From positions 19,424 through 83,423 of the forward strand of contig SVCL01000191.1 of assembly GCA_015058405.1 (NCBI GenBank): 64,000 nucleotides of DNA, read 5' to 3'. Positions 1 through 61,437 of the stretch are shown here, one piece after another. Both the position numbers and the translations under genes were made by a program. How positions within the stretch are numbered: position 1 is the stretch's first letter; every line of letters starts with the position of its first letter. The notes under the pieces were generated by a model, which saw only the letters and a program-made list of their open reading frames with translations, searched no databases and was not told where the DNA came from. Source of the DNA: Clostridium sp. Its GTDB lineage: Bacteria; Bacillota; Clostridia; Clostridiales; Clostridiaceae.

Positions 1-1
1 T

Positions 2-7659: not shown

Positions 7660-7663
7660 GTTT

Positions 7664-9702: not shown

Positions 9703-9713
9703 GGTATAACTTT

Positions 9714-10331: not shown

Positions 10332-10352
10332 AATTATATCTCCTTAAGTATT

Positions 10353-41611: not shown

Positions 41612-44600
41612 ATGGGTAATAAAGTTAAGATTGAAAAAATATATAACTTAACATCTATGAAAGAAGGTATGATTCTTTATGATGAATTAAATAAGGAAAA
41701 TGATGCCTACATAGAACAATCAATGTTTATTATTAAAGGATGTTTAAATGTTAATACATTAGAAGAAACTTTTAATAAGTTGATTGAAAGATATGAAGCT
41801 TTTAGGAGTGTTTTTATAAGTAAAGGGATAAACGAACCTGTACAAGTAGTAGTTCAAGATGCTAAGTTGGTAATTCATTATGAAGATCTTACAAATTATA
41901 CTGGAAGTAAAGAGGAGTATATAAAAAAATTTGAAGAAGAAGATAGAAGAAAAGGCTTTGATTTAACTAAAGCACCTTTAACTAGAGTATCTGTATTAAA
42001 GTTAGATGAAGAGGTATTTCAAGTAGTATGGAGTTTTCATCATATAATTATGGATGGATGGTGTATGGGAATATTGATAGATGAAATGTTTAAAATATAT
42101 GATTCTATTAATGAAAACTATACATTAGATTTACCTAAGGTACATTCTTATTCTAAATATATGGACTGGCTTAAATTGCAAGATGAAGACGAAGCTGAAG
42201 AGTATTGGAAAGAATATATGTCTGAATATGAGGAGTGTGCATGTATTATCAATTCCAAAACTAGTGCAAGCAGTAGTAAATATGATGTTTGTGATTTATA
42301 TTTTAAAGTTAATAAGGAAAAGACAGGAATATTAAAAGAAATTTCAAATAAGTATGGAGTAACTTTAAGTACAATAATTCAAAGTATATGGGGAATAATG
42401 CTTCAGAGATACAATAGTACAAAGGATGTAATATTTGGTGCTGTTGTATCAGGAAGACCTGCTGAAGTTGAAAATGTATCTAGTATAGTTGGTCTGTTTA
42501 TAAATACTATTCCTGTAAGAGTAAAAACTGAAGAAAAGATGCAGTTTAATGAATTATTATTAGATATGCAAAATAAAGCATTACAATCAGATAAGTATCA
42601 ATATTATTCATTAGCTAAGAATCAATCAAATTCATTAGTTAAAGAAAATCTTATAAATAATATTGTAGCTTTTGAAAATTATCCAGAATCTGATGAAATA
42701 AATAATTCAAATTCATTAATGAAAAGTAATCTTTTAATAAGTGATTTAAGAGCATATGAGCAAACAAGCTATGATTTTAATTTTATAGTATTACCAGGAG
42801 AAGAATTAACAATCAGATTTAATTATAATGGCGCTAAATATGATACAGGAACTATAGAAAGAATAAAAGATCATTTTATAAATATAGTTAATAATGTTGT
42901 GGAAAATGATTCGATTATCATTGACGATATTGATATTATTGGTGATGAAGAAAAAGAGAAAATACTAAACCACTTTAATAATACTAATAAGGAATATGAA
43001 AATAAAAAGAATGTTATTGAATTATTTGAAGAACAAGTTGAAATAAATCCAGAAAATATAGCTATTGTAGATGGGGAAGAAGAGGTAACTTATAAAGAGT
43101 TAGATAAGAAGTCTAATTTGTTAGCTTCAAAATTACTTGAGAATGAAAGATTAGGTAGTGAAAGCATTATATCAATAATGATGGATAGATCTATAAATAT
43201 GATAGTTAGCATGCTTGCTGTTTTAAAAGTTGGAGCTGCATATTTACCAATAGATCCAGAATACCCAAGTAATAGAATAGAGTATATTTTACAAAATAGT
43301 AAATCTGATATGTTAATAACACAAAAGAAATACAGTAAGGATTTAGATTTTGAAGGAAGTATATTGAATATAGAAGAGGTTAATTTTGCTGATGAATTGA
43401 AAGTAGAAAGAATTAATAACAGTAAATATGATGATTTAGCTTATATAATTTATACTTCAGGAACAACAGGAAATCCTAAAGGTGTAATGATTGAGCATAG
43501 AAATTTAATTAATTTATGTAAATGGCATGTAGATAGATTTGGAATAACAGAAAAGGATAATTCTGCTCAATATGCATCTATGGGATTTGATGCATGTGTT
43601 TGGGAAATATGGCCTTACATTATTTCAGGTTCAACTATTTATATAGTTCCAAATGAATTAAAAATAGATATTTTAAGTCTAAATAATTTTTATAATAAAA
43701 ATAATATAACAGTATCCTTCTTACCTACACCTATATGTCAAAGTTTTATTGAGATAGGTGAAAATAGTTCTTTAAGATATTTATTAACAGGAGGAGATAA
43801 GTTAGTAAATTATAAAAAACAAAACTACAAGTTAGTAAATAATTATGGTCCTACAGAAAATACAGTAGTTACAACTAGCTTTGAAGTTGATGCTGAGTAT
43901 AGTAATATTCCTATTGGAAAACCAATTTATAATACTAAAGTATATATATTAGATAAAAATGATAAGTTAGCACCTATTGGAGTATCCGGTGAAATATGCA
44001 TAAGTGGTTCAGGAATATCAAGAGGATATTTAAATAATGAAAAGTTAACTAAAGAAAAGTTTATTGATAATCCATATAATAAAGAAGAAAAGATGTATAG
44101 AACTGGAGATTTAGGAAAGTGGACAAATGATGGGAATATTGAATTCCAAGGACGTTCTGATTATCAAGTTAAAATAAGGGGATTTAGAATAGAGCTTGGT
44201 GAAATAGAAAGTAATTTATTGAAGATAGAAGGGGTAACAGAGGCTACAGTACTTGATATTGGTGAGGGAGATAATAAGCATTTATGTGCATATATTACTA
44301 CAGGTAAAGAATTAAGTATAAGTTATCTAAAAGAAGTTCTTAAAGAAAACTTGCCTAAGTATATGGTACCAACTTACTTCATAATACTTGATAGAATGCC
44401 ATTAACACCTAATGGAAAAGTAGATAAAAGAGCTTTATTAAAAGTAGAAATTAATAATGAAGAAAGCGAAAATATAGAAGTTCAACAAGAAACAAATGAT
44501 ATAGAAAAAAACTTGTTAGGAGTATGGGAAAAGATCTTAGGAGTTAAAGGAATAAAGTTAGAAGAAAACTTTTTTGATATTGGAGGAAATTCATTACTTG

Positions 44601-45325
44601 TACTTAAAATGTTTTCTCTTATAAATAATATCTATAAAGATAAGATTAAAATTACAGATATTTTTGCTAATCCAACAATAAAAGAATTAGCAAAATTAAT
44701 TGGTTATAATCCAGAAGATGAAGAAAATTATGAAATAGAAGGATTAAAGCTAAGTGATGAATATTTCTTGAATAATGAAAGAAATACTGAAAATTCAATG
44801 TTTGAGTATACAATTGATGAAGATATGTATAGTGAATTACTAAGAATTTCAGATAATTTAGCTATTAATATAGAAACAATATTAATAGCTACAAATATTT
44901 ATATTAATAATAAAATAAGTGATATCAGTGAACAAGTTATATATACAATTCTTGATAAAGAAGATAAGGTTAAAAAGAGCATTATTGATTTAAAATCAAT
45001 AAGTAATTTTACAGATTTGTTTATGTTAGTTAAAGAAGGTATCTTTGACAATGAGGAAAATGTGTACGATATTGCTAAATTTAATAGAGTAATTAAAAAC
45101 AATAAAGAAGTAAATATAATTTATCCTTTAATATATAATAATGAACTTGATGTTAGTGATTATAATTTAGAAGAAATATTTAATTTATCACTAAGTGTTG
45201 AAAAATTTGAAGATTATTTAAAACTTAAGTTTAACTATAATACTGATATTATTAAGACTAATAAAGTTGAAGAAATGTTTGGTTTATATATTAATTTATT
45301 AGAAATGATAATTAAAAACTATTAA
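41612..45325 (+). CDS. NRPS 4: C(DCL) - A(Leu) - PCP - half-C
   Basis: HHIIMDGWC; A code DAWFLGNVVK (Leu); PCP GGNS; C-terminal ~190 aa resemble a degenerate C-lobe. Confidence 0.92.
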   Translation: MGNKVKIEKIYNLTSMKEGMILYDELNKENDAYIEQSMFIIKGCLNVNTLEETFNKLIERYEAFRSVFISKGINEPVQVVVQDAKLVIHYEDLTNYTGSKEEYIKKFEEEDRRKGFDLTKAPLTRVSVLKLDEEVFQVVWSFHHIIMDGWCMGILIDEMFKIYDSINENYTLDLPKVHSYSKYMDWLKLQDEDEAEEYWKEYMSEYEECACIINSKTSASSSKYDVCDLYFKVNKEKTGILKEISNKYGVTLSTIIQSIWGIMLQRYNSTKDVIFGAVVSGRPAEVENVSSIVGLFINTIPVRVKTEEKMQFNELLLDMQNKALQSDKYQYYSLAKNQSNSLVKENLINNIVAFENYPESDEINNSNSLMKSNLLISDLRAYEQTSYDFNFIVLPGEELTIRFNYNGAKYDTGTIERIKDHFINIVNNVVENDSIIIDDIDIIGDEEKEKILNHFNNTNKEYENKKNVIELFEEQVEINPENIAIVDGEEEVTYKELDKKSNLLASKLLENERLGSESIISIMMDRSINMIVSMLAVLKVGAAYLPIDPEYPSNRIEYILQNSKSDMLITQKKYSKDLDFEGSILNIEEVNFADELKVERINNSKYDDLAYIIYTSGTTGNPKGVMIEHRNLINLCKWHVDRFGITEKDNSAQYASMGFDACVWEIWPYIISGSTIYIVPNELKIDILSLNNFYNKNNITVSFLPTPICQSFIEIGENSSLRYLLTGGDKLVNYKKQNYKLVNNYGPTENTVVTTSFEVDAEYSNIPIGKPIYNTKVYILDKNDKLAPIGVSGEICISGSGISRGYLNNEKLTKEKFIDNPYNKEEKMYRTGDLGKWTNDGNIEFQGRSDYQVKIRGFRIELGEIESNLLKIEGVTEATVLDIGEGDNKHLCAYITTGKELSISYLKEVLKENLPKYMVPTYFIILDRMPLTPNGKVDKRALLKVEINNEESENIEVQQETNDIEKNLLGVWEKILGVKGIKLEENFFDIGGNSLLVLKMFSLINNIYKDKIKITDIFANPTIKELAKLIGYNPEDEENYEIEGLKLSDEYFLNNERNTENSMFEYTIDEDMYSELLRISDNLAINIETILIATNIYINNKISDISEQVIYTILDKEDKVKKSIIDLKSISNFTDLFMLVKEGIFDNEENVYDIAKFNRVIKNNKEVNIIYPLIYNNELDVSDYNLEEIFNLSLSVEKFEDYLKLKFNYNTDIIKTNKVEEMFGLYINLLEMIIKNY

Positions 45326-45344
45326 ATATTATTGGAGGGGTTGT

Positions 45345-46595
45345 ATGAAAGATGTAGTGTTGTTGTTTTCAGGACAAGGTTCTCAATATGTTGGAATGGG
45401 AAAAAACATATATGATAAATACTCAATTGTTAAAGATATATTCGAGGAAGCAAGTGATACCTTAAATATAGATATGAAGAAGTTATGCTTTGAGGGGGAT
45501 TTGGAAAAGTTATCATTAACTAGTAATACACAAACTGCTATATTAACAGTTAGTTATGCTATGTTTAAAGTGCTAACAAATGAGTATGGAATAAATCCTG
45601 TATATATGGCCGGACACAGTTTAGGTGAAATAAGTGCTATTACCTGCGCTAATGCTATCAATTTTAAAGATGGACTTAAGATAGTAAAAAGAAGAGGAGA
45701 ATTAATGCAAAGAGCTAGCGCTGAAAAAAGCAGTATGGCAGCTATTATTGGTGTTGAGTCAAAAGAGGTTGAAAATGTAATTGATGAAATAAAGAATAAA
45801 GGGCGAATAATCAATATTGCTTGTTATAATTCTACGCTGCAAAATGTTATTTCAGGAGAAGATGAAGCTGTAAGAGAAGCTATTAATAAGTTAGAAACTA
45901 TAGCTAAAAAAGTATCTCATTTAAAAGTAAGTGGAGCTTTTCATACACAATTAATGGCTCCTGTAGCTGATGAATTTGAAGAAGAGTTAAATAAGTATAA
46001 ATATAATGAATTTAGTATTCCTGTAATTAGTAATGTAAATGCTAAAGAATATGAAAGTTCATTAGAAATTGTAAGTAACTTAAAAAATCAGTTAACAAAT
46101 CCAGTATTATGGACTGATATAATGAAAGCTATAATAAATAAAGATAGTGATTATATTATAGAATTAGGGCCTAAAAATACATTAAGTAAGTTATTTAAGA
46201 GATATTCTAATATGAGTAATATATATGCTTTTGATAACAAAGCTGATCTAAATAAAATAGATAGAAATATAGGTTTAAAAAAAGATATTGATTTTAATCT
46301 GGTAAAATCAATATTAGTTGCAGCATCATGTACTGAGAATAATAATTTTCAAAATGAAAAATACAGTGAAAATGTAATTCTTCCAATAAAGAAGATAAAA
46401 AATATATATATTGCATTAAAAGAAACAAAAAGAGAGGTTACTGTTGAAGACTTAGATAAAGCAGTAGAGGCTCTTTTTTTAGTGCTTGAAAATAAGAGTG
46501 TAGGTAATTTTGAAAAGAAAGAAATATTAAGCGAATTATTAAAACAAACAAGATATGAAGAGATTAAAAGAAAAATCGCAAGTAATATCATATAG
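45345..46595 (+). CDS. Stand-alone malonyl-CoA:ACP transacylase (trans-AT), ItuD/FenF-like with C-terminal extension
   Basis: FSGQGSQYVGMG, catalytic GHSLGE, VSGAFH, ELGP; ~110 aa extension beyond the FabD core. Confidence 0.9.
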   Translation: MKDVVLLFSGQGSQYVGMGKNIYDKYSIVKDIFEEASDTLNIDMKKLCFEGDLEKLSLTSNTQTAILTVSYAMFKVLTNEYGINPVYMAGHSLGEISAITCANAINFKDGLKIVKRRGELMQRASAEKSSMAAIIGVESKEVENVIDEIKNKGRIINIACYNSTLQNVISGEDEAVREAINKLETIAKKVSHLKVSGAFHTQLMAPVADEFEEELNKYKYNEFSIPVISNVNAKEYESSLEIVSNLKNQLTNPVLWTDIMKAIINKDSDYIIELGPKNTLSKLFKRYSNMSNIYAFDNKADLNKIDRNIGLKKDIDFNLVKSILVAASCTENNNFQNEKYSENVILPIKKIKNIYIALKETKREVTVEDLDKAVEALFLVLENKSVGNFEKKEILSELLKQTRYEEIKRKIASNII

Positions 46596-46613
46596 ATTTT
46601 AAAAGGAGGAAGT

Positions 46614-49600
46614 ATGCTAAGTTTTGACGATATTGATTTGAATATAAAGAAAGAAAAAGTTGAAGTTAAGAAAATTCGTTCAAAAGACATAGCTGTTATC
46701 GGTATAAGTTTAAGATTACCTAAGGCTAACAATTTGGAAGAATTTTGGTGCAACCTTACTAATGGAATAGATTGCATTGACCATGTACCAACTTCTAGGC
46801 AAAAAGATATAACAAAGTATTTAAAATACACTAATATGGATAAAGAATTTGAAGTTGGAGAAATGGGCTATATAGATGATATAGATAAATTTGATTATAA
46901 GTTTTTTGGCTTATCTCCAAATGAAGCTAAATTAATGGATCCAAATCAAAGAGTATTTTTACAAACTGCATGGAATGCTTTAGAGGATTCTGGATATGGC
47001 GGTAAAAAGTTTTATGGTAGTAGAACAGGTGTGTATATAGGTTATGGAGATACGCCTGATTATTCTTATAGTAGATTAATTGACGAGGTTGAACCAAAAA
47101 GTAAAATAGTTAGTTTTACAGGAAATTTATCAGCGATGATTGCAAGTAGAATAAGTTATATTCTTAACTTAAGAGGACCAAGTGTAACTATAGACACAAC
47201 ATGTTCTTCATCTTTAGTAGCATTACATATGGCATGTCAAGGAATACGAAATGGCGATTGTGATGCAGCAATAGTAGGAGGGGTAAAAATAAGTGTTTTA
47301 CCTCTTAAATCAAAAGAAAAGTTAGGTATAGAATCTTCTAATGATAGAACTATGGCTTTTGATGATAATTCTGATGGAGCAAGTAGTGGAGAAGGTGTGG
47401 TAGCCTTAATTATAAAACCATTAGACAAGGCTATCAAAGATAATGATTCTATATATTCTGTTATAAAAGGAAGTTCAATAAATCAAGATGGAAGATCTAT
47501 TGGAATTACAGCTCCTAATCCAGAGGCACAGGAAGATGTTCTAATTAGAGCTTGGAAGGAAGCAGAAGTGAATCCAGAAGATATATCATATGTAGAAGCT
47601 CATGGAACAGGAACAAATTTAGGAGATCCAATAGAAATTGATGGATTAACTAGAGCTTTTTCTAAATTTACAGATAGAAAACAATTTTGTGCTGTAAGTG
47701 CTCTTAAATCTAATATTGGACATTTAGATAGTTGTTCAGGTTTAGCTGGAGTTGTAAAAGCTATCCTATGTCTTAAACATAAAACTTTAGTTCCAGTGGT
47801 TAATTTTACAGTTCCAAATTGTAAAATTGATTTTGAAGAGTCGCCAGTATATATAGTTAACAAAACTAAGAAATGGAATAGTAGATGTGACTTAAGAAAA
47901 TGTGGAGTAAGCTCTTTTGGATTAAGTGGATGTAATTGTCACGTTGTATTAGAAGAGTGGCAAGAAGATAAATCAGCTAGTTTAAGTAGAATTAATGAAT
48001 TTGATATGTTATCTGTTACAGCAAAATCACAAGAAGCATTAGAAAATTTAATAAAGAAATATATAACTTTTATTGAGAATATTGATGAAAGTGACTTAAT
48101 GAATTTTGTTTATACAGCTAATACAGGAAGAGGAGAATATGAAGAAAGAGTATTATTCATATTCTCAAACAAGGAAGAGTTATTAAATAATATGAAGTCT
48201 TTTAGTAGAAAGAACTTTAATAGTGAAAAAATATTTATTACTAATAGAGAACATTATAATGATATAAACTTCCAAAAAACTGTACAAGATGAAATTGATA
48301 GCTTACAGAAAAATTGTCAATACGATTTAGAAACACTTATTAAAATTGCAGGATTATATGTTAATGGTGGAAGTATTGACTGGAATAAGTTTTATAAAAA
48401 AGAAAAGAGAAAGAAGATTCATATACCAGGATATGAGTTTGAGAAAATTAGGGTATGGCTTAATATTCCAGATGAGAGAAAAGTTAAGTGTTTAAATTCA
48501 GTGGAAAAGGAAGAAGAGAAGAAAGTTAAGCCTACAAGTATTGAAGAAATAAGCAAAGTAATTGCAGATACTTGGAGTGAGTATTTAGGAATAACTTCAA
48601 TTGGGCTAGAAGATAATTATTATTCATTAGGGGGAGATTCTCTTATTGGTATCCAAATTGTAAATAGATTAAAAAATATTTTAGATGTGGATATAAAATT
48701 AAAGGATTTATCTGAAGGTTTAACAATAAAAAAATTGTCTAGCATAATAATGGAAAAGTCTAAGTTAGACAATAGTTCTGCTAAAAATGATATGACTATC
48801 AAAAAGGCAGAAAAGAGAGAGTATTATCCATTATCTTCAGCTCAAAAGAGAATGTATGTAAGTCAAGTATTAGAAGATGAAAAAGAGAATAAAACTTATA
48901 ATATTTTTGGTGCATTAGATATTGAGGGTAAGTTAGATATAGATAAACTTAAACATGCATTAAATCAAGTTACTGAAAGACATGAAATTTTAAGAACATC
49001 TTTTAAATTAGTTGATGGAAAACCTGTCCAAATAGTAAATGAAGATATAAAAATAGAATTAGAAACTATGGAGATAGATGAAAACAACATAGATAAACAA
49101 ATTGATTTATTAATTAATTCTTTTGATCTAAGTGCTGCACCATTAACTAAATATTATTTATTACATGTAGCAAATGATAAATATATATTTGTATATAATA
49201 TGAACCATATAATTTCAGATGGTGTTTCAGTAGGAATATTTATGGATGAAGTATCTCAAATATATAATGGAAATACTTTAGAACCATTGAAATTACAATA
49301 TAAGGACTATGCAGTATGGCAAAATAAGATCATAGGTAGTGAAATAATTGAAAGTCAGAGACAATATTGGATTAACAAATTTAGTGGTGACTTGCCTACA
49401 TTAGATTTATTGCCTGATTATTCTAATAGTTTGGATAATGTATATGAAGGAAGTTATGTTAGAGTTATTGCAGACTTAGACATAAAAAGAAGTTTAAATG
49501 AAATTGCTAATAAGAGAAGTACAACATTATTTAATGTATTACTAGCTGCATATTATGTACTTTTAATGAAGTATAGTAAGCAAGAAGATATAATCATAGG

Positions 49601-50153
49601 ATCACCATTTTCAGGAAGACAAAATTCGGAAATTGAAAATCTAATGGGAATGTTTGTTAATACTATTGCTTTAAGAAGTTGTCCAAACAATAGCAAGAAA
49701 TTTAATGACTTCTTAGAGGAAGTAAAAACTTGTACTATGGAAGCAATTGAAAATCAAGATTATCAATTTGATATGCTTGTAGAAGAACTAAATTTAAATA
49801 GACAAGAAGGTAAGCTATTTGATACTTTCTTTGCATTACAAAATATGAAGTTAGACCCAATTAAGATTAATGATGTGAAAGTAGATTTCAGAGAATGTAA
49901 TATTCATGTATCTCCATATAAAGTATCATTAATTTCTATGGAAAATAGTGAAGGTATAAATTTAATATTTGAATATCAAAAAAATGTATTTAAAAGAGAA
50001 ACTGTTGAAGGTTTTGCAGAAAGCTATATTAGTATTTTAGAACAAATTACAGAAGATGATACTTTAATGATAGAAGATATTAAGATATGTAATGAGTACG
50101 ATAAAGCAGAATGCGATATTTTAGAAAATGAAGATTTAGATTTTAATTTTTAA
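46614..50153 (+). CDS. AT-less PKS/NRPS hybrid: KS - ACP - C(LCL), no KR, DH or ER
   Basis: KS triad DTTCSSSL, EAHGTGT, KSNIGH; AT-docking remnant PGYEFEK; ACP LGGDSL; C domain YPLSSAQKRMY and NHIISDGVS; ends ENEDLDFNF. Confidence 0.92.
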   Translation: MLSFDDIDLNIKKEKVEVKKIRSKDIAVIGISLRLPKANNLEEFWCNLTNGIDCIDHVPTSRQKDITKYLKYTNMDKEFEVGEMGYIDDIDKFDYKFFGLSPNEAKLMDPNQRVFLQTAWNALEDSGYGGKKFYGSRTGVYIGYGDTPDYSYSRLIDEVEPKSKIVSFTGNLSAMIASRISYILNLRGPSVTIDTTCSSSLVALHMACQGIRNGDCDAAIVGGVKISVLPLKSKEKLGIESSNDRTMAFDDNSDGASSGEGVVALIIKPLDKAIKDNDSIYSVIKGSSINQDGRSIGITAPNPEAQEDVLIRAWKEAEVNPEDISYVEAHGTGTNLGDPIEIDGLTRAFSKFTDRKQFCAVSALKSNIGHLDSCSGLAGVVKAILCLKHKTLVPVVNFTVPNCKIDFEESPVYIVNKTKKWNSRCDLRKCGVSSFGLSGCNCHVVLEEWQEDKSASLSRINEFDMLSVTAKSQEALENLIKKYITFIENIDESDLMNFVYTANTGRGEYEERVLFIFSNKEELLNNMKSFSRKNFNSEKIFITNREHYNDINFQKTVQDEIDSLQKNCQYDLETLIKIAGLYVNGGSIDWNKFYKKEKRKKIHIPGYEFEKIRVWLNIPDERKVKCLNSVEKEEEKKVKPTSIEEISKVIADTWSEYLGITSIGLEDNYYSLGGDSLIGIQIVNRLKNILDVDIKLKDLSEGLTIKKLSSIIMEKSKLDNSSAKNDMTIKKAEKREYYPLSSAQKRMYVSQVLEDEKENKTYNIFGALDIEGKLDIDKLKHALNQVTERHEILRTSFKLVDGKPVQIVNEDIKIELETMEIDENNIDKQIDLLINSFDLSAAPLTKYYLLHVANDKYIFVYNMNHIISDGVSVGIFMDEVSQIYNGNTLEPLKLQYKDYAVWQNKIIGSEIIESQRQYWINKFSGDLPTLDLLPDYSNSLDNVYEGSYVRVIADLDIKRSLNEIANKRSTTLFNVLLAAYYVLLMKYSKQEDIIIGSPFSGRQNSEIENLMGMFVNTIALRSCPNNSKKFNDFLEEVKTCTMEAIENQDYQFDMLVEELNLNRQEGKLFDTFFALQNMKLDPIKINDVKVDFRECNIHVSPYKVSLISMENSEGINLIFEYQKNVFKRETVEGFAESYISILEQITEDDTLMIEDIKICNEYDKAECDILENEDLDFNF

Positions 50154-50181
50154 ATAAATATTTTTTTAGGGGGAATTTAAA

Positions 50182-51105
50182 ATGGAAAATAGTAAAAAAA
50201 ATAGTATTATGGTAGTGGTTTTAACATTTATAATGTCTTTTGTTGTTTATCTTGCAGCTACATTAGTTGTTAGAGGAACATTTATTTCTATTCAAAATTT
50301 AGGTGATTTACCTATGGAAGAAGCAAATATGATTTTAGGTAAAAATCCAGTGTATTTAGGAGTAAATTCAATTGTAGATATTTTAGTAATTGTATGTTTA
50401 ATGTTTATTGTAAAGAAGAAAAATGAAAAAGTATTTGAATATGATGATGTTGTTAAGTTTAGAAAAAGAAGTTTTAATCTATATTCTTTAGGAATACTTT
50501 TAGCAACAATAAATATGGTTGTATTTACTTTATTTGCAGTTTGTTCAGGTTTATTTTCTTATGGTTCAGAAACTGTGTCTGATTTTTCTACTAGTGTAGT
50601 AGTTGAGTTTGTTATTTGTGGATTAGTTTATTCGTTTATTACTGGATATTGTGAAGAATTACTTCATAGAGGAATTATATATAAGCAATTAAATAAAGCT
50701 TGTCCTAAGTATTCTTTATATATATGTTCATTTTTATTTATGATGACAGAATTATCAGGAAGTCAATTTAAATTAATAGATTATGTTGGTGTATTTTTAG
50801 CTGGTGTATTTTTCTGTTATTTATATGATGTAAGTTCTTCAATGTTTTTATCAGCTGGATTCCATTCAGGAGTACACTTCCTTTTATTAATGGTAACTAA
50901 ATTCCAAGGTGTTGATATATATCAAGGACCAATGTTTATGATTTTTAATCCAAGTAATGATTTTGTTGTTGGAGGTATAAGCTTAGGATCTCCATATGGT
51001 ATTGTTACTGCAGTTATTAATATGCTAGGAATAGTTATATTAACTATTTATAAAAAGAAAAAGAATATAAAAAGTGAAGCAGAATTAAATATGAAAGCTG
51101 CTTAA
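50182..51105 (+). CDS. CPBP/Abi (type II CAAX protease-like) membrane protein with divergent motifs
   Basis: Multiple TM helices; EELLHRG (EExxxR). Expected FxxxH reads FMMTE; expected HxxxN reads HSGVH. Confidence 0.75.
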   Translation: MENSKKNSIMVVVLTFIMSFVVYLAATLVVRGTFISIQNLGDLPMEEANMILGKNPVYLGVNSIVDILVIVCLMFIVKKKNEKVFEYDDVVKFRKRSFNLYSLGILLATINMVVFTLFAVCSGLFSYGSETVSDFSTSVVVEFVICGLVYSFITGYCEELLHRGIIYKQLNKACPKYSLYICSFLFMMTELSGSQFKLIDYVGVFLAGVFFCYLYDVSSSMFLSAGFHSGVHFLLLMVTKFQGVDIYQGPMFMIFNPSNDFVVGGISLGSPYGIVTAVINMLGIVILTIYKKKKNIKSEAELNMKAA

Positions 51106-51147
51106 TTTCATCTAGAGAGCTAAAGTAAAGAGGCGGAGGATATAAAA

Positions 51148-54100
51148 ATGAGTGATATAAATAAACTTAATACTCAAGATACAGACAAGTTATTTTGGAA
51201 TAAACAGTTAAGTGCTAATTTAAGTGATAATCATTTTCCTTATGATTACAATTATGAGGGGAATAATGAAGAAAAAATATATGAATGGTGTGAGCTTAAT
51301 TTATCAGATGAAGCAAATAATGTTATAAAAAAAGTCGCAGGAAGTTCTGATGTAAAGTTACATATTTTATTTATATCAGCATTAAGTATTTTAATAAGTA
51401 GGTATTCTGAAAATAACGATATTATAATATCATCTCCAATTTATAAGCAAAATATAGAAGGAAATTTTGAAAACAAAGTATTAGTTTTTAGAAATGAAAT
51501 TGATTTAGAAGGAAGTTTTAAAAACTTCCTTCTTAAGGTTAAGGACAATTTGGTTGAAGCAACTAAACATCAAAATTTTCCTATATCAAAGTTTATTAAT
51601 ACAATAGAGTTTGAAAATTTTGAAAATGGAAATGATATATTTCAAGTAATGCTTGCTATTGATGCTATTCATGATATTAATTATGTTGATTGTATAAATA
51701 GTAACTTATATTTTTTAGTTGTAAATGATGAAAAAAATATAAAAATAAAAGTTAAATTCAATTCTAATTTATATAAGAAAGAAAGTATTAAGTTAATATT
51801 ATATTCTTTAGAAGAGTTAATAACTGAATTAATTAGTAAAAATAGTATTGAGAATTTTAATATTCTTTCTAATTATGAGAAAACAAAAATATTAAATGAA
51901 TTTAATAAGAAAACAGTTTGTGATGAAGAATATTTACTTCATGAATTATTTGAAAAGCAAGTTGAAAAAAATCCAGATGAAATAGCTTTGATAGATGGAA
52001 GTAGAAGTATAACTTATAAAGAATTAAATGATAAAGCAAATTCATTGGCTGGATTTATAAATGAAAAAGGAATGGGGAAAAATACAATTATAGGAGTTAT
52101 GCTTGATAATTCCATAGAACTTATAATTTCATTATTAGGAATATTAAAAGCAGGTGCGGCTTATTTACCAATAGATTCAGGTTATCCAGAAGATAGAATA
52201 AGTTTTATGATTGAGGATAGTAAGTTAAATTGTATTATAACAGAAAATAAATATGAGAACTTATTAAAAGATAGAAAAATAAATATTATTGATATTAATA
52301 ATGAAGAAATATATTTATATAAGGATAGAGTAATTAATATTGAAAAGAATCCAAGTACTTTAGCATATATAATATATACTTCTGGTACAACAGGAAAACC
52401 AAAAGGGGTAATGATTGAACATAAAGCAGTTACTAAATCTATATTATGGCGTAGCAATGAATATAAGTTAAGTGTTGAAGATGCAGTATTGCAGTTATTT
52501 TCATATTCATTCGATGGATTTGTAACAAGCTTTTTTACTCCAATAGTATCTGGTTCTAAGGTAGTTTTATTAAAAGGAAATGAAGTTAAAAATCCTTATA
52601 AAATTAATGAAGCTATAAAAAAATATAATGTGACTCATTTTATAGCTGTTCCACCATTATTTAAAGCTATATTAGATAATGCAAAATATGATGATCTTTT
52701 GTCATTAAAAATTGTAACTTTGGCTGGTGATAATATAACTAATGATGTAATAAAGAAAGCTAAACAATTAAATGAAAATTTAGAAATTGTAAATGAATAT
52801 GGTCCTACAGAAAATAGTGTAGTCACAACTATATACAGAGATTTAAAAGTTAATGAGCCAATAAAAATAGGTAAACCTATAAGTAATACTCAAGTATATA
52901 TAATTAAAAATGATAAATTATGTAATGTGGGTATTAGTGGTGAGTTATGTATATCAGGAGAAAGATTAGCTAGAGGATATTTAAATAGAGAAGATTTGAC
53001 TTCTGAGAGATTTGTTCAAAATCCTTTTGATAAAGATTTAATTATGTACAAGACCGGAGATATAGGTAAGTGGGATATTGATGGAAATATAAGATTATTA
53101 GGAAGAAAAGATAATCAAGTTAAAATAAGAGGATTCAGAATAGAGCTTGGGGAAGTAGAAAATAGAATACTAGAATATAAAGGCATAGAAAGTGTAGTAG
53201 TTACAGCTAAATATGATCATCATAATAATAAATCTTTATGTGCATATTTTGTTTCTAAGGATAAAGTATCTACCTTAGATTTAAGACAATATCTTAATAA
53301 GGTATGTCCTTTATATATGGTGCCAGCTTATTTTATGCAAATAGATAGTATACCTATAACTGTTAATGGAAAGGTTGATAGAAAAAACTTACCGGATATA
53401 GAGTTTAAAAGAGATATAAATTCTAAGTTTGTTGAGCCTAGAAATGAAAACGAGAAGATTATTGCAAATGAATGGAGAAAAGTTTTAGAAATAGACCAAA
53501 TAGGTATATATGATAACTTCTTTAATTTAGGAGGAGATTCTCTTAAAGCTATTCAAGTTGCAAGTTTATTATCTGATAAGTTTGAAATCGAAATCAATGA
53601 TATTTATAAAAATCAAACTATAGCAGAACTAGCTGAAAAAATAAAATATTCTAATACATCTGTAAAGGATAGAATTAAACAAATAATAAATTCGGATTAT
53701 ACATTTAATGATGATAAAAATTTAAGTGAACAAGAATATATAAATGATGAATATAATAATAAATTGAATTTATGCAAAGAAGAAAGTTATACAGTGAAAA
53801 GTTATACTAACATAATGCTAACAGGTGTTACAGGATATGTAGGAGCATATTTAAGTAAGGAAATTTTAGAAACTTTAAATTCAAATATATATGTTTTAGT
53901 AAGAGGAGAAGATTTAAATATAGCTACTAAAAGATATATTGATAAGTTAACTTTCTATTTTGGTGAAGATTTTTATAATAAGTACAAAGATAGAATAAGT
54001 GTTATAAATGGAGATATAACAGAAGAATTTTTAGGTATAGAGAAATGTCATTATGATGAATTAGCAAATACAATAGATTGTGTTATTAACTCAGCTGCAT

Positions 54101-54915
54101 ATGTAAAGCATTTTGGTGAGTATAAAAATTTCTATGACATAAATATTAAAGGTGTAAATAACCTTATGAAATTTGCAAATAGTGGAGTTAAAAAGGATTT
54201 TAATCAAATATCAACTCTAAGTATAGCTTCAGGAACTATTCCTGAAAAAGACGAAATAGTGTTTACTGAGTTAGACTGCGATGTTGGTCAAGAAAATGAA
54301 AACTTCTATTCTATGAGTAAATTAGAAGGTGAGAAAAAAATATTAGAAGCTAGCAAGGAGTATTCAATAAATACTAAGATATTTAGATTAGGTAATATTG
54401 TTTGTAATTCAGAAAGTGGAAAATTCCAAGAAAATATTTCAGAAAATGCATTCTATAACTTTGTTAAGTCATTAATAAAATTGAAAACAATTGCAAATAT
54501 TGATTTAAAAGTTTTAGATTTTACATTTGTTGATCAAGCAGCTAAAGCAATACTAAAAATATTTGATAAAGAAAATTTAGAAATGAATATTTTCCATATT
54601 TCAAATAATAATAAAGTAAGTTTATCAGAATTAGGAAATATGTTGAAAGAAATATATAAGGATATTAATGTTTGTGATGCTAAGGAATTTCTTAATATAT
54701 TATATGATAATTTAGATAATGAAGAATTAGCACCTTATGTTAATAATATATTAAGATATTTTGGACTTTTAGATGATAAACATATAACTAAATTTATAAT
54801 ATTAAATAGCTATACTGATTTATTATTAAAGAAAAATAAATTTGAATGGAGTAAATTAAATATAGTTAAGTTAAAAAGTATGATTGATTATTGCGTTAAT
54901 AGTAAGTTTATTTAA
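51148..54915 (+). CDS. NRPS 5: half-C - A(Tyr) - PCP - R (terminal thioester reductase)
   Basis: A code DGTITAEVVK, one position from the fengycin-type Tyr code DGTITAEVAK. PCP GGDSL. R domain with TGVTGYVG, catalytic YSMSK and FRLGNI. Confidence 0.92.
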   Translation: MSDINKLNTQDTDKLFWNKQLSANLSDNHFPYDYNYEGNNEEKIYEWCELNLSDEANNVIKKVAGSSDVKLHILFISALSILISRYSENNDIIISSPIYKQNIEGNFENKVLVFRNEIDLEGSFKNFLLKVKDNLVEATKHQNFPISKFINTIEFENFENGNDIFQVMLAIDAIHDINYVDCINSNLYFLVVNDEKNIKIKVKFNSNLYKKESIKLILYSLEELITELISKNSIENFNILSNYEKTKILNEFNKKTVCDEEYLLHELFEKQVEKNPDEIALIDGSRSITYKELNDKANSLAGFINEKGMGKNTIIGVMLDNSIELIISLLGILKAGAAYLPIDSGYPEDRISFMIEDSKLNCIITENKYENLLKDRKINIIDINNEEIYLYKDRVINIEKNPSTLAYIIYTSGTTGKPKGVMIEHKAVTKSILWRSNEYKLSVEDAVLQLFSYSFDGFVTSFFTPIVSGSKVVLLKGNEVKNPYKINEAIKKYNVTHFIAVPPLFKAILDNAKYDDLLSLKIVTLAGDNITNDVIKKAKQLNENLEIVNEYGPTENSVVTTIYRDLKVNEPIKIGKPISNTQVYIIKNDKLCNVGISGELCISGERLARGYLNREDLTSERFVQNPFDKDLIMYKTGDIGKWDIDGNIRLLGRKDNQVKIRGFRIELGEVENRILEYKGIESVVVTAKYDHHNNKSLCAYFVSKDKVSTLDLRQYLNKVCPLYMVPAYFMQIDSIPITVNGKVDRKNLPDIEFKRDINSKFVEPRNENEKIIANEWRKVLEIDQIGIYDNFFNLGGDSLKAIQVASLLSDKFEIEINDIYKNQTIAELAEKIKYSNTSVKDRIKQIINSDYTFNDDKNLSEQEYINDEYNNKLNLCKEESYTVKSYTNIMLTGVTGYVGAYLSKEILETLNSNIYVLVRGEDLNIATKRYIDKLTFYFGEDFYNKYKDRISVINGDITEEFLGIEKCHYDELANTIDCVINSAAYVKHFGEYKNFYDINIKGVNNLMKFANSGVKKDFNQISTLSIASGTIPEKDEIVFTELDCDVGQENENFYSMSKLEGEKKILEASKEYSINTKIFRLGNIVCNSESGKFQENISENAFYNFVKSLIKLKTIANIDLKVLDFTFVDQAAKAILKIFDKENLEMNIFHISNNNKVSLSELGNMLKEIYKDINVCDAKEFLNILYDNLDNEELAPYVNNILRYFGLLDDKHITKFIILNSYTDLLLKKNKFEWSKLNIVKLKSMIDYCVNSKFI

Positions 54916-54927
54916 GGGGGGAGATTT

Positions 54928-56223
54928 TTGAATCAAGAAGCAGTACTAGAAACAAATATGTTAAAGTCAAGTTTCAAAAGAAATTATTTTTTATTAATGT
55001 TAGGGAGAACAATATCAGAAATAGGGACAAGCATTTTTAAGTTTGGGTTGAGTTTATATGTACTAGATGTAACTAAGTCAGCATTTGCATATTCTATGGT
55101 TCTATTCTTCTCTACAATGGCAGGAGTAATAACAAATGTGTTTGCAGCAAGTATTTCTGATAAATACAATAAGAAGAATATTATGATTATATCAGATATT
55201 CTTAGTGCTATAGTTATTTGCATTTTTTCAATCTTATGTGGCAGAATATTGAATAGTATGATAATATTAATAGTATATGTAATAATTATAAGTAGTATAC
55301 AGTCGTTATTTGAATTAACGATAAGCTCTGCTATTCCTAATTTATTCTGTGAAGATGATATAACTAAAGTAAATTCATCATTACAATCTATATTATCTTT
55401 ACTAGGTATATTTGGGGCAATAGTAGGGAGTTTTATATATAGTAGCTTCGGTATAACTACTATATTAATTATTGATGGAGTATCTTTTGGAATTACTGGA
55501 CTTATGGAAATGTTTTTAATCTATAAAGATGATAAAAGAGCAGTAGAGTTTCAAAAAGAGAAAAAATATATTAACAATATAAAAGAAATATTTATGTTTT
55601 TTAAGCAAAATAGTACGTTAATATTTTTAGTGATATTTGTAATGATAACAGGCCTAGTATTTGGATCTTTAGTGCTTTTAGTATTACCATATATAACTTA
55701 TAATGAATTAAATTTATCTTCGTTAGAGGTAAGTTTAATACAAGCAGGATGGTTTATAGGGACAATATTAGGCGCTATATTGGTATCTAAATATAATGCG
55801 TTATCAAATATAATGAAAAAGATTTTTTTATTTTTAGCAATTCAAAGTGTAAGTGTTATGTTTTGGGTGTTTCCTAATATATTGAATTCAAATAGTGTTA
55901 GTAATTGGGTTATAACAGGAGTGTATATGACATTATTAATTATACTTGGAATATTTAATAGTTATCAGATAATTCCGATAACAACATTTTTCCAAATATA
56001 TATTCCAACTGAAATAAGAGCTCGTTTTTTTGGAATATTCAATGCAAGTATTTTAATAGCGTCATCACTAGGTAATTGTATATATGGAATTCTACTTGAA
56101 AACTTCAATTGGTCAATAATAATTTTTATTTCAGGTATAATAACTATAGTTTATGCTTTATTTGGTAGAAAAGGTAAGAAGTTTGGCAAATATTCTGAAT
56201 TAATTGATAGTATAAATGTTTAA
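54928..56223 (+). CDS. MFS exporter (TTG start)
   Basis: About 12 hydrophobic helices; motif A-like ASISDKYNKKNIMIISD; second-half motif IPTEIRARFFG. Confidence 0.88.
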   Translation: MNQEAVLETNMLKSSFKRNYFLLMLGRTISEIGTSIFKFGLSLYVLDVTKSAFAYSMVLFFSTMAGVITNVFAASISDKYNKKNIMIISDILSAIVICIFSILCGRILNSMIILIVYVIIISSIQSLFELTISSAIPNLFCEDDITKVNSSLQSILSLLGIFGAIVGSFIYSSFGITTILIIDGVSFGITGLMEMFLIYKDDKRAVEFQKEKKYINNIKEIFMFFKQNSTLIFLVIFVMITGLVFGSLVLLVLPYITYNELNLSSLEVSLIQAGWFIGTILGAILVSKYNALSNIMKKIFLFLAIQSVSVMFWVFPNILNSNSVSNWVITGVYMTLLIILGIFNSYQIIPITTFFQIYIPTEIRARFFGIFNASILIASSLGNCIYGILLENFNWSIIIFISGIITIVYALFGRKGKKFGKYSELIDSINV

Positions 56224-56266
56224 AAAATTGTATTTACAACAACCAAGATTTAGGGGAGTGCAATTA

Positions 56267-57148
56267 ATGAAAGTCGAATTAAAGAATATAGGAAAACAAT
56301 ATACCAAAGATTTTTGGGGAGTAAAGAATATTAATTTAGAATTAGATGAAGGAGTTATAGGATTGCTAGGTTCAAATGGTGCAGGAAAATCTACATTAAT
56401 GAGAATACTAACAATGGTAACTAAGCCTACTTGTGGAGAAATTTTAGTAAATGGAAAAAATGTTCTTAAAAATCCTGAATCTTTAAGAAGTGTATTAGGA
56501 TATTTACCTCAAAATTTCGGAGTTTATCCTAACTTAAATGCATTAGAATTTTTAGAATATATAGCTTCTGTTAAAGGAATTAGAAATAAAGATGCAAAAA
56601 GAAGAATTGATGAATTACTTCAATTATTAAATTTACATGATGTATGCAAAAGACCAATAGGTGAATATTCAGGAGGTATGAAGCAACGTGTAGGTATAGC
56701 TCAAGCATTATTAAATGATCCTAAGTTATTAGTTGTAGATGAACCAACTGTAGGATTAGATCCAGAGGAAAGAGTTAGAATACGTAATCTTTTTTCAGAG
56801 ATTGCATCTGATAGAATAATTTTATATTCTACACATATAGTTTCAGATATTGAGGCTATTTCGAATAAAATAGCAATTATAAATAAAGGAAGATTGAACA
56901 TATACAATACAAATGAAAAAATTATAGATATGGTTTCAGATAAAGTATGGGAAGCAACAGTAAATGAAGATGAATTAAAGAAGTTAAAGGACAAGTTGTT
57001 AGTTAGTAATGTTGTAAGATATGGTAATGAATCAACATTAAGAATTGTATCTGAGACAGTTCCTACAATAAATGCAAAAAGAGTAAAACCTACCTTAGAA
57101 GATGCTTATTTATATTTTTCATCACATATAAGAAAGGAGAATGAATAA
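56267..57148 (+). CDS. ABC transporter ATP-binding protein (start probably 56267; ORF track gives 56216)
   Basis: Walker A GSNGAGKST, signature YSGGMKQR, Walker B VVDEP, H-loop STH; AGGGGAG RBS. Confidence 0.93.
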   Translation: MKVELKNIGKQYTKDFWGVKNINLELDEGVIGLLGSNGAGKSTLMRILTMVTKPTCGEILVNGKNVLKNPESLRSVLGYLPQNFGVYPNLNALEFLEYIASVKGIRNKDAKRRIDELLQLLNLHDVCKRPIGEYSGGMKQRVGIAQALLNDPKLLVVDEPTVGLDPEERVRIRNLFSEIASDRIILYSTHIVSDIEAISNKIAIINKGRLNIYNTNEKIIDMVSDKVWEATVNEDELKKLKDKLLVSNVVRYGNESTLRIVSETVPTINAKRVKPTLEDAYLYFSSHIRKENE

Positions 57149-58784
57149 TATGAACGCATTGGATAGAGTTTACAGAATTGCAAAGGCTGATTTTAAAGAG
57201 AGAGTACGAAGTTATAAGTTCTTAATAATTTTGGGATTTGCTATGTTTCTGTCTTTTACATTTATTGCTCCTACAAATGCAGAGTATATTACCAATTATG
57301 TAATGCAAGATAATGTTATTTATAGAGGTGTATATAATTCAGCATGGTTAGGAAGTATGATGGCGTTATCTATTACTGTATTTTTATCTTTATTTGGTTT
57401 TTATTTAATTAGAAGTAATGTAGAAAGAGATATTGATACAGGCATGAATCAAATTCTTGGTTCCTGTTCAGTGAAGAAGAGTATATATATTTTTGGAAAG
57501 TTTTTAAGTAATTTTTGTACTATATTAACAATTATATTAATTGCAGCTTTTTCTACTATAGTAATTCAATTTATTAGAGGTGAAGTATTGCAAATTAATT
57601 TAGTAGATATTTTTTCTCCAATAATTTTTATAGTGCTGCCAAGTATAGCAGTGGTTTCTGCAATAGCAATACTTTTTGAATCAATTTCATTTTTACGTGG
57701 TAGTTTAGGAAGCGTTGCTTACTTTTTGCTGTGGATGGCTATTTATATTATAACTATGGAAACAAATTTATCTAATCAAAATATTGCAGGAGCAAATATT
57801 TTTAAAAATGATTTATTTGGTATGACTACATTATTAAATTACATGCTTAATGGAATAAAAGAGGTATTCCCTAATATTACTGCTAATATGATTGAGCTAT
57901 TTGGCGATAAAGGAAGTTATGCTATACAAACTTTTAATTGGGGTGGAATAAAGTGGAGTGCATCTATTATTTTAGTAAGATTTATATGGGTGTTAGTAGC
58001 TTTATTAATTGTTGAAGTCTCTAGTGTATTATTTAGAGGGTTTGATGTTCTAAGAAAAAATAAAACTAATTTAAATGTATTAAGCTTATTTAAGAAGAGA
58101 ACACCAATTAATTATGAAATATATAAATATAAGGATAATGGAACTAAGTTAACTAAGTTGAAAAGTAGCTCTTTTCAATATAATTATATATCAAATATAA
58201 TTCAAGAAATTAAGTTATCATTAAAACTAGTAAATATTTGGTGCTTTTTAGCTATGATAATTATACTTATATTTGAATTTGTAGCACCTATAGATAGCGT
58301 TAAAGCATATTTAGCTCCAGTATCTACGATCTTACCAATTGGTATTTGGTCTATTTTAGGACTTAAAGAAGATAAATACAATTTAAGTCAAATCTTAAGT
58401 TCATGTTCTAAATATAAAACACGTCAATTTTTAGTTCAATGGATATCAGCAGTAGTGCTAACAGCTATTTTACAAGTAGGACTTTTAGTAAAGCTATTAC
58501 TAAGTGGAGGATTTTTAGGATTTATTTCATGTTTAGTAGGAATTATTTTTGTTCCTTCATTAGCATTTTTACTAGGTACTATAAGTGGGAATAGTAGATT
58601 ATTTGAAATAGTATATAGTATAATTTGGTATTTTGGATTAATTAACAATGTACCAGCACTAGATTTTATAGGAATTTTCACAGGTGGAAATATAATTATT
58701 ACATTATTCTATTTTATTATTTCGATAGCATGTGTTATTTGTGTATATTTGATTAAAGAAAATAAAGATTTTTCAAGTAGATAA
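57141..58784 (+). CDS. ABC-2-type permease with duplicated membrane domains
   Basis: 547 aa with many TM segments in two halves; overlaps the stop of the ATPase gene. Confidence 0.75.
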   Translation: MNNMNALDRVYRIAKADFKERVRSYKFLIILGFAMFLSFTFIAPTNAEYITNYVMQDNVIYRGVYNSAWLGSMMALSITVFLSLFGFYLIRSNVERDIDTGMNQILGSCSVKKSIYIFGKFLSNFCTILTIILIAAFSTIVIQFIRGEVLQINLVDIFSPIIFIVLPSIAVVSAIAILFESISFLRGSLGSVAYFLLWMAIYIITMETNLSNQNIAGANIFKNDLFGMTTLLNYMLNGIKEVFPNITANMIELFGDKGSYAIQTFNWGGIKWSASIILVRFIWVLVALLIVEVSSVLFRGFDVLRKNKTNLNVLSLFKKRTPINYEIYKYKDNGTKLTKLKSSSFQYNYISNIIQEIKLSLKLVNIWCFLAMIIILIFEFVAPIDSVKAYLAPVSTILPIGIWSILGLKEDKYNLSQILSSCSKYKTRQFLVQWISAVVLTAILQVGLLVKLLLSGGFLGFISCLVGIIFVPSLAFLLGTISGNSRLFEIVYSIIWYFGLINNVPALDFIGIFTGGNIIITLFYFIISIACVICVYLIKENKDFSSR

Positions 58785-58836
58785 TTTTTGATGGAAAAAA
58801 TATTAAATTTATATTAATGGTTTAAGAGGGATTGAG

Positions 58837-59334
58837 ATGCGTTGGTATGTATTGTTTGTTAATGTTGGAGAAGAAGTAAATGTAAAAAAATCAATAAAGA
58901 AGTTATTGTGTGAAGATTGTGAAGTTGTTGTACCTAGAAGAAAGATACGTGAAACTAAACAAAGAATCAAAAGGGAAGTAATTAAAAATTTATTTCCCGG
59001 ATATGTTTTTATTGAAGTAGATATGAATGCAGAGGTGTATTATAAGATAAAAAAAATACCTAATGTAATAAAAATCTTAAGTTATGATTCTAATTATACA
59101 GATGTATTAAGTAAGGAAATGGATCTTATATTTAACTTAATTACTGTAGGAGAAGTAATAGAATTATCTGATGCAATCTTTGTTGAAAATAGGTTACAGG
59201 TATTATCTGGACCTTTAAAAAATAAAGAGCAGTTCATAAAAAAGGTTGATAAGAGGAAAGAAAGAGCTACTGTATATTTTAATATACATGGTAAAACTCA
59301 AAAGGTGGATTTAGGGCTTAACATTATAAATTAG
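58837..59334 (+). CDS. loaP: LoaP-type NusG paralogue (processive antiterminator)
   Basis: NGN domain (WYVLFVNVGEE, LFPGYVFI) plus KOW domain with basic IKKVDKRKERA motif characteristic of LoaP; located at the end of a biosynthetic operon. Confidence 0.85.
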   Translation: MRWYVLFVNVGEEVNVKKSIKKLLCEDCEVVVPRRKIRETKQRIKREVIKNLFPGYVFIEVDMNAEVYYKIKKIPNVIKILSYDSNYTDVLSKEMDLIFNLITVGEVIELSDAIFVENRLQVLSGPLKNKEQFIKKVDKRKERATVYFNIHGKTQKVDLGLNIIN

Positions 59335-59475
59335 TTTTAAGAAAAATTTAAAATATTTAACAAGTTCGTTAAAAAAAGTTATAATATTTTAATTAGAGTC
59401 TTAAATAATAAGTTAAAAGTATTATTTAATTTTTTGTTATTATTTAATCATAGAATATATCTGGAGGTATTTGAT

Positions 59476-61416: not shown

Positions 61417-61437
61417 TTTTAGAAATGAGGAGAATTT

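Follow-up and report, generated by a model that had tools for sequence, protein, structure and literature searches.

The described pathway closest to the one considered here is that of mutanoclumpin (mcg) in Streptococcus mutans (PNAS 2025), in which McgB carries out a ketide extension, the serine-activating McgC releases the chain as an aldehyde through a terminal reductase (R) domain, and aldol closure gives a five-membered lactam that is then dehydrated (PMC12403116). Isotope feeding established this course of events; the pyrrolinone is diverted by Michael addition or by reduction to 2-pyrrolidones without an accessory enzyme, and homologous biosynthetic gene clusters were stated to occur in Clostridium (PMC12403116). 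In the present work a 64 kb stretch of contig SVCL01000191.1 from an uncultured Clostridium, referred to below as the window, was analysed. With moderate confidence, positions 46614-54915 of the window are assigned to the chain-terminating cassette of a trans-acyltransferase (trans-AT) hybrid non-ribosomal peptide synthetase-polyketide synthase (NRPS-PKS) lipopeptide operon (about 19.4-58.8 kb). In this cassette a ketosynthase-acyl carrier protein-condensation (KS-ACP-C) protein without a ketoreductase (KR) precedes a protein made up of a half-condensation domain (half-C or C'), an adenylation (A) domain, a peptidyl carrier protein (PCP) and an R domain.

The mcg cluster and the window cluster are both hybrid lines from Bacillota that start with a fatty acyl-AMP ligase (FAAL), place a single ketide extension right before the last NRPS module and end with a terminal R domain, and type II thioesterase (TE) and transporter genes are present in both. 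The arrangement that marks a mutanoclumpin-type ending, a KR-less ketide module directly upstream of a terminal R module, was found in the window. The joined residues differ, the terminal one being Ser in mcg and Tyr-like in the window, and the ketide extending a γ-glutamyl thioester in mcg but Leu in the window; the upstream mcg peptide also differs in having neither azoles nor D-residues. The CPBP protease, S12 hydrolase and half-C domains encoded in the window are unreported in the mcg paper. The products of mcg undergo further reduction, and for one of them Michael addition leads to macrocyclization.

Related chemistry has been described for three other systems. For mutanobactin a cascade involving an aldehyde, a ketoamide and a thiol was proposed and chemically emulated (PMC9400992). 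For malleicyprol (BurF, Burkholderia), in vitro work showed that release by the R domain is followed by ring closure of the Knoevenagel type (PMC12304814); this resembles the window system in having a bacterial terminal R domain and an aldehyde next to a β-keto group, followed by ring closure, but its ester linkage leads to a butenolide and not a lactam, and it belongs to a proteobacterium with an unrelated architecture. In fungal PKS-NRPS systems of the cytochalasan/pyrichalasin type (PyiS, ACE1) an R-released β-ketoamide aldehyde undergoes Knoevenagel closure to a pyrrol-2-one (PMC7898483). These share with the window a β-ketoamide on an aromatic amino acid that is released by an R domain, but they are single iterative megasynthases that make a long polyketide and require a helper α/β-hydrolase, whereas the window encodes a bacterial modular trans-AT line spread over several proteins, the acyl part of which is a peptide.

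The functionally characterized R domain nearest to that of the window is from the aureusimine synthetase AusA (PDB 4F6L/4F6C), and the NCBIfam AusA model was the top model for the terminal protein, with a score far under its cutoff. AusA differs in lacking a PKS step, its dipeptide aldehyde cyclizing via the amine to a pyrazinone. Lactacystin was considered as a precedent and rejected, since its lactam does not arise by R release but is closed by a KS-like cyclase while the substrate is bound to its carrier (PMC11730586). No characterized orthologue of the cassette or of the cluster was found in the full-text literature searched, which covered few subscription journals.

The ketide module and the reductive terminus

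The + strand carries every gene between 19397 and at least 58784, the intergenic gaps measuring tens of bases, and no terminator-like site was found in 45000-58800, although promoter and terminator scans are uninformative in such AT-rich DNA (G+C about 25 % across the window). The close spacing and the lack of a terminator-like site together indicate that 46614-54915 lies at the end of one long operon, of which roughly 35 kb lead up to and include it. Every ORF of at least 150 aa in the window was scanned against Pfam, with additional scans at permissive thresholds for the sequences between domains and for the Leu module's 200 aa tail. The features are listed in Table 1.

In the 1179 aa KS-ACP-C protein, Pfam placed ketoacyl-synt at aa 24-273, Ketoacyl-synt_C at 281-398, KS C-terminal extension and linker families up to about aa 530, PP-binding at 649-709 and Condensation at 735-1165. 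No Acyl_transf_1 match was obtained within this protein by Pfam; the stand-alone AT, whose gene ends 18 nt upstream of the KS-ACP-C gene, scored 303 bits against NCBIfam FabD TIGR00128 (cutoff 260.9). A KS without an in-line AT and a discrete AT in the same cluster are what characterize a trans-AT assembly line, and the solved structures nearest to the KS were trans-AT KS domains (7ZMA, PksL and PksJ). The triad Cys197/His330/His370 is intact, in agreement with the first-pass annotation of this DNA, and the KS is therefore predicted to be elongating.

The stretch between KS and ACP gave no family match at E ≤ 1 except noise and, being only about 120 aa long, leaves no room for a KR in the module; homologues of the KS-…-C protein that do bear a KR are about 1700 aa in length, i.e. 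about 500 residues longer. The KR and short-chain dehydrogenase/reductase (SDR) families PF08659, PF00106 and PF13561 had no match in any of the scanned ORFs of the window, the 1179 aa protein included, so the earlier statement that the cluster encodes no ketoreductase was upheld by the HMM scan that it had called for. The sole SDR-fold element in the window is the terminal R domain, and neither a KR in the module nor a dedicated reductase in the cluster, as expected for a statine-forming module, was found. The same annotation was also right that the window encodes no type I TE, the only TE being of type II.

The C domain fused to the ketide module is complete, with the core motifs C1 SSAQKRMY, C2 RHEILRT and C3 MNHIISDG, the last at 49200-49223 with the catalytic second His kept and the first His replaced by Asn. 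Its predicted task is to form the β-ketoamide linkage, with the Tyr-S-PCP of the following NRPS protein as acceptor.

The 1255 aa terminal protein had been described as A(Tyr)-PCP-R, and the Tyr-like A domain and both R motifs are indeed present; the half-C domain at its N terminus had been overlooked. The Pfam layout is half-C at aa 10-248, AMP-binding at 268-612, PP-binding at 772-830 and NAD_binding_4/thioester reductase at 888-1254. When all C domains were aligned, the HHxxxDG region was absent from this C', which probably serves the A domain as a platform or for docking. Specificity codes were read by alignment to the GrsA segment, which gives DAWTIAAICK; the code of the terminal A domain agrees at eight of 10 positions with DGTITAEVAK, which we take to be the Tyr code.

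The R domain matched PF07993 (NAD_binding_4) with E 3e-46 and TIGR01746 with E 7.5e-51 and 173.5 bits, the latter under the curated cutoff of 213 bits. Among solved relatives the best were an archaeal PCP-R didomain (6VTJ, 3e-41) and the R domain of AusA (4e-34); the alcohol-forming R domains of MxaA (4e-18) and of Mycobacterium Nrp scored far below the aldehyde-forming AusA. Both the TGxxGxxG and the YxxxK motif that identify a thioester reductase terminus are intact, and a reductive role is therefore expected. Non-reductive R* domains, the Dieckmann cyclases of fungal tetramate synthetases, have lost the catalytic Tyr and/or carry a degenerate nucleotide-binding motif, and a terminus of that kind was rejected here because both motifs are present.

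Table 1. Positions of the features identified in the window
Feature	Position (nt)	Strand	Evidence or remarks
Flavin amine oxidase	4355-5851		Beyond the housekeeping genes, outside the operon
GlgB	7664-9508		Housekeeping gene
Pyruvate carboxylase	15538-18978		Housekeeping gene
Type II TE, stand-alone, 260 aa	19397-20179	+	Only TE of the window
SagB-family azoline dehydrogenase	20198-21175	+	TIGR03605, 115 bits (cutoff 78)
First NRPS, 3178 aa	21188-30724	+	FAAL-like A-PCP, Cy-A(Cys)-PCP, Cy-A(Cys)-PCP-E (Cy, heterocyclization domain; E, epimerization domain)
Stand-alone DCL C domain	from 30740	+
C'-A(Val)-PCP-E-C	from 32279	+	Code DAFWIGGTFK
C'-A-PCP-E, residue 4	from 37686	+	Code DVEQVGNVDK
NRPS module 5: DCL-type C, A(Leu), PCP and 200 aa tail	41612-45325	+	Code DAWFLGNVVK (Leu)
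Trans-AT, stand-alone, malonyl-specific type	45345-46595	+	Pfam Acyl_transf_1; GQGSQ, GHSLG, GAFH
KS-ACP-C protein, 1179 aa	46614-50153	+	Pfam
Trans-AT-type KS and linker	46683-48203	+	DTTC197SS, H330GTGT, NIGH370
ACP	48558-48740	+	LGGDS676L
Complete LCL-type C domain	48816-50108	+	Pfam Condensation profile 2-453, E 7e-107
CPBP/Rce1-like intramembrane protease	50182-51105	+	PF02517; EELLHRG, FHSGVH; about six transmembrane (TM) segments
Terminal protein C'-A-PCP-R, 1255 aa	51148-54915	+	Pfam
C' (vestigial C-terminal lobe of a C domain)	51175-51891	+	Condensation profile 191-455 only, E 1e-18
A domain (aa 268-742)	51949-53373	+	Code DGTATAEVVK, Tyr-like
PCP	53461-53637	+	LGGDS798L
Terminal thioester reductase (R)	53809-54909	+	TGVTGYVG at aa 892; Y1054SMSK (Tyr1054/Lys1058)
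MFS exporter, ABC ATPase, 547 aa protein, LoaP, S12 hydrolase, response regulator (RR), histidine kinase (HK)	54928-63220	+	Downstream genes
547 aa multi-TM protein	57141-58784	+	About eight hydrophobic segments; directly after the ABC ATPase gene
LoaP-type NusG paralogue (antiterminator)	58837-59334	+	NCBIfam, 176 bits (cutoff 125)
RR, HK and membrane-anchored S12 hydrolase	59434-63220	+	Order differs from relatives

Related cassettes in other Bacillota

KR-less KS-ACP-C proteins of 1170-1250 aa are common in Bacillota, and the genomic surroundings of nine of them were examined. A four-gene cassette, consisting of the trans-AT, the KS-ACP-C protein, a CPBP (Rce1-like) protease and a half-C-A-PCP-R protein, was recognized in five loci. 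The two with the highest identity to the window KS-ACP-C protein (50 % each), from C. butyricum and from a second Clostridium metagenome-assembled genome, carry the cassette followed by a phosphopantetheinyl transferase (PPTase) gene and an agr quorum-sensing set; the latter comprises AgrB, a small peptide gene, an HK and a LytTR regulator (locus L013, 20445-23337; locus L020, 19646-22724) and is absent from the window. In B. cereus (46 %) the cassette is followed by an RR, an HK and a beta-lactamase-fold protein of 630-635 aa, and in Brevibacillus sp. (45 %) and Paenibacillus dauci (42 %) by the same RR/HK/S12 trio.

The other four relatives were variable. In B. thuringiensis (40 %; locus L017, the KS protein of which falls in a cluster of 75 member sequences) a minimal version without a CPBP gene was found, made up of A-PCP, AT, KS-ACP-C and A(MT)-PCP-R. 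This minimal five-gene version (1-13458) also includes MFS and PPTase genes, and its terminal A domain has a Gly-like code; it may be the simplest system for testing the ending. Clostridium sp. BNL1100 (44 %) and B. atrophaeus (40 %) possess further NRPS modules, and C. estertheticum (40 %; locus L019) has a TE in place of the R domain. The last of these represents the tetramate-type endings (KS-ACP-C, then A-PCP-TE): its KR-less protein is homologous and the next protein also begins with a half-C domain, but with a TE instead of R, the chain is expected to undergo a Dieckmann reaction that yields a tetramic acid.

Along their whole length, the orthologues from Clostridium were collinear with the proteins of the window (43-50 % identity), and the codes for their last three amino acids, DVEQIGNVDK, DAWFLGNVVK and DGTSTAEVVK, correspond to those of the window. 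In the Bacillales cassettes the residue ahead of the KS is Pro-like, and the last residue also differs. The ending is thus conserved, whereas the residues that it joins vary. The R motifs were intact in all copies except that of C. butyricum, whose nucleotide-binding motif escaped the search pattern. None of the related loci sampled encodes a KR within the cassette or next to it; in P. dauci one SDR gene lies about 5 kb downstream of the cassette. Because the KR-less cassette recurs with an R domain across related loci, the unreduced ketone beside a reductive terminus is read from these sequences as a designed feature and not as a gap in one genome.

A scan of representative genomes revealed no close relative, the best match being 47 % identity in R. 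papyrosolvens, and the NRPS and PKS proteins of the cluster remained singletons when clustered at 90 % identity.

Predicted release and ring closure

From the domain order, the Leu-terminated peptidyl chain would pass from the PCP of the protein encoded from 41612 to the KS. The stand-alone malonyl transferase would load the ACP and the KS would add one C2 unit, as suggested by the intact triad and the FabD-type AT. With KR, dehydratase and enoylreductase domains absent, the resulting γ-amino-β-ketoacyl-S-ACP should be left unreduced, and the PKS-fused C domain would couple it in trans to the Tyr-S-PCP of the next protein, the own half-C domain of which is dead. The KS module is unlikely to be skipped: it has kept its triad, is served by a dedicated AT and is retained in different genera. 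With NAD(P)H, the AusA-like R domain would then release the chain as an aldehyde; its motifs and its greater similarity to AusA than to MxaA lead us to infer this product and not the alcohol. The released species would be R-NH-CH(iBu)-CO-CH2-CO-NH-CH(CH2Ar)-CHO.

By analogy with mutanoclumpin, the methylene between ketone and amide would attack the aldehyde (aldol/Knoevenagel) to give a 4-hydroxy-pyrrolidin-2-one, and loss of water would yield a 3-acyl-5-(4-hydroxybenzyl)pyrrolin-2-one, which may tautomerize, add a nucleophile or be reduced further to a pyrrolidone. We put the chances at about even that this pyrrolinone, or a pyrrolidone formed from it by reduction, is the product. Of the outcomes considered, closure to a lactam has the best support; the final form may be a 1,5-dihydro Michael acceptor, a tautomer, a hydrate or a reduced pyrrolidone. 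The C. estertheticum sister locus is the tetramate-type variant to be expected of a β-ketoamide ending and so supports this assignment.

Several points weigh against it. The two- or four-electron outcome of an R domain is not reliably predictable from similarity between R domains, and the likeness to McgB and McgC lies in layout and chemistry. In the six relatives examined the C3 motif of the PKS-fused C domain is (M/I)HHII(S/T/A)DG, so that the Asn of the window copy is a departure. As the window covers 64 kb of an 88 kb contig, a trans-acting KR may be encoded elsewhere, and no product of the cluster or of any orthologue found is known. Model β-ketoamide aldehydes of the Phe/Tyr type close slowly at pH 7, the product settling as the 1,3-dihydro tautomer or adding water, and in the fungal systems closure keeps ahead of the shunt that reduces the aldehyde to the alcohol only with the aid of the helper hydrolase (PMC7898483). 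No hydrolase of this helper type was evident in the cluster apart from the type II TE.

The first-pass annotation had proposed that the product would end as a linear β-ketoamide aldehyde or cyclize to a pyrrolinone, which would be unusual for a bacterial pathway. The logic of the proposal is sound and now has a precedent in mutanoclumpin (PMC12403116). The view that it is unusual is weakened, since the cassette was found in at least five other Bacillota loci and R release followed by Knoevenagel or aldol chemistry has been published for bacteria (PMC12403116, PMC12304814, PMC9400992). The suggested Michael acceptor warhead fits poorly with the slow closure and with the tautomer or water adduct that the models give (PMC7898483), and the mcg pyrrolinone is itself reduced to a pyrrolidone. 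As for the comparison with protease inhibitors, nothing in the sequence bears on it.

The linear peptide aldehyde (a keto-statine-tyrosinal, or its hydrate or hemiaminal) might instead persist and act as a covalent protease inhibitor, with no lactam formed, an outcome that we regard as unlikely. The similarity of the R domain to AusA-type, aldehyde-releasing reductases and the slow cyclization of the model aldehydes (PMC7898483) are both consistent with it. Nevertheless, the methylene of the 1,3-dicarbonyl unit is placed for a five-membered ring and is strongly predisposed to cyclize, and in the mcg system aldol closure was described as facile, with no linear aldehyde accumulating (PMC12403116).

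It is somewhat less probable again that a four-electron reduction by the R domain, or a host reductase finishing the step, gives a tyrosinol end with the β-ketoamide intact. R domains of the same fold include alcohol formers, and these (MxaA and Mycobacterium Nrp) also matched the window domain; moreover, unassisted fungal systems give shunt alcohols (PMC7898483). The match to the alcohol-forming type was nevertheless much weaker than that to AusA (4e-18 versus 4e-34), and the retention of a KR-less ketide module paired with an R domain in several genera suggests that each of the two reactive groups is intended for the other.

Improbable to a slightly greater degree is the reduction of the β-ketone, on-line or after release, by a reductase encoded outside the window, which would leave a statine-type residue. 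Since the window does not span the genome, such a gene could lie elsewhere, and an SDR gene is present downstream of the P. dauci cassette. The statines of pepstatin are made by a discrete post-assembly reductase and not by a KR domain, which also speaks for this route. Against it, neither the window nor the cassettes of related loci and their flanks contained a KR or SDR gene, other than that in P. dauci, and homologues that need the reduction have an in-line KR.

Trapping of the aldehyde by another nucleophile of the peptide, such as a side-chain amine of residue 4, to give a macrocyclic imine of the nostocyclopeptide/lugdunin type is very improbable: the code DVEQVGNVDK is acidic at position 331, presumably as for basic substrates although that assignment is uncertain, and mutanoclumpin and mutanobactin both macrocyclize through their reactive terminus, but the identity of residue 4 is not established, five-membered closure should be kinetically favoured, and the usual nucleophiles are absent because the N terminus is acylated and both cysteines are heterocyclized.

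Remainder of the cluster and implications of the ending

As read from the domain order and codes, the predicted chain is fatty acyl-azol(in)e-azoline-D-Val-D-Xaa-Leu-CH2CO-Tyr, and the predicted product of the whole line is fatty acyl-Cys(azole)-Cys(azoline)-D-Val-D-Xaa-Leu-[CH2CO]-Tyr-H. In the first NRPS the two Cys codes are DLYNLSLIWK and DLYNLSAIWK, and the Cy domains carry DLLVSDGAS and DLLIADGAS. An E domain follows the second heterocyclizing module, which suggests that the second ring stays a thiazoline. Profiles were made from domains of the window itself, and all C-type domains were aligned. EGHGRE and FNYLGQ are present in the E domains, and wherever a C domain comes after an E domain its N terminus is of the ‘LTPxQEGM’ kind, which we take to be associated with DCL domains. 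The tail of the Leu module (aa 1030-1237, nt 44699-45322) gave only a weak Condensation match, confined to the final 50 positions (profile 386-436, E 0.002), and may help the KS protein to dock.

Three of the NRPS proteins start with a half-C domain without a catalytic motif (32297-33001, 37734-38357 and 51175-51891). Each comes after a complete C domain, either free-standing or at the end of the preceding protein; the line is thus split at the C/A junction, with a half-C domain on the A side of every such split. Half-C starts were also found in the relatives from C. butyricum, B. cereus and C. estertheticum. A frameshift or assembly artefact was rejected as their origin because the preceding C domain is complete, the profile coordinates overlap and the layout is conserved in relatives.

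The CPBP protease gene lies between the KS-ACP-C and terminal NRPS genes, a position that is kept in the Clostridium, Bacillus, Brevibacillus and Paenibacillus loci, and the protease may serve self-protection. The genes that continue downstream on the + strand are probably part of the cluster. They include the 547 aa protein, which had no match to any Pfam or NCBIfam family and is probably the permease of the adjoining ABC ATPase. The LoaP gene lies downstream of the biosynthetic genes and not upstream of the operon that it might antiterminate.

The RR/HK/S12 trio accompanies the cassette in four genera (loci L014, 19215-22990; L021, 18334-22118; and L022, 17287-21016 in the relatives). The S12 beta-lactamase-fold hydrolase (630-660 aa) carries an SVSK motif and is anchored at its N terminus, with four TM segments at the C-terminal end, and its best solved relatives were a penicillin-binding protein-related beta-lactamase, Flp and D-peptidases. 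A ClbP-like prodrug peptidase was considered; ClbP was not among the 60 best solved relatives listed, and the prodrug idea is for that reason speculation.

The cluster is an uncharacterized member of a known chemistry with an architecture that recurs in Bacillota. It introduces no new biochemical principle, since the chemistry is established in fungi and, since 2025, in streptococci. Less expected features are the half-C domains at C/A splits, the membrane protease inside the cassette and the conserved two-component/S12 set. A further reading, which we regard as less likely than not, is that the cassette is a portable ending module, grafted onto unrelated peptide lines in Clostridium, Bacillus, Brevibacillus and Paenibacillus, that installs an electrophilic acyl-pyrrolinone, with the CPBP protease, two-component system and S12 hydrolase serving self-protection or maturation and the half-C domain representing a previously undescribed mode of docking at the C/A split.

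If the predicted lactam ending is correct, a lipopeptide family with a reactive lactam terminus would arise from a simple, transferable two-protein ending and would be spread across Bacillota of soil and gut, among them C. butyricum and the B. cereus group; in the window cluster this ending is joined to a bis-azole, D-residue-rich lipopeptide. A KR-less KS-ACP-C protein next to A-PCP-R would then provide a handle for genome mining, and the ending would be a candidate part for engineering.

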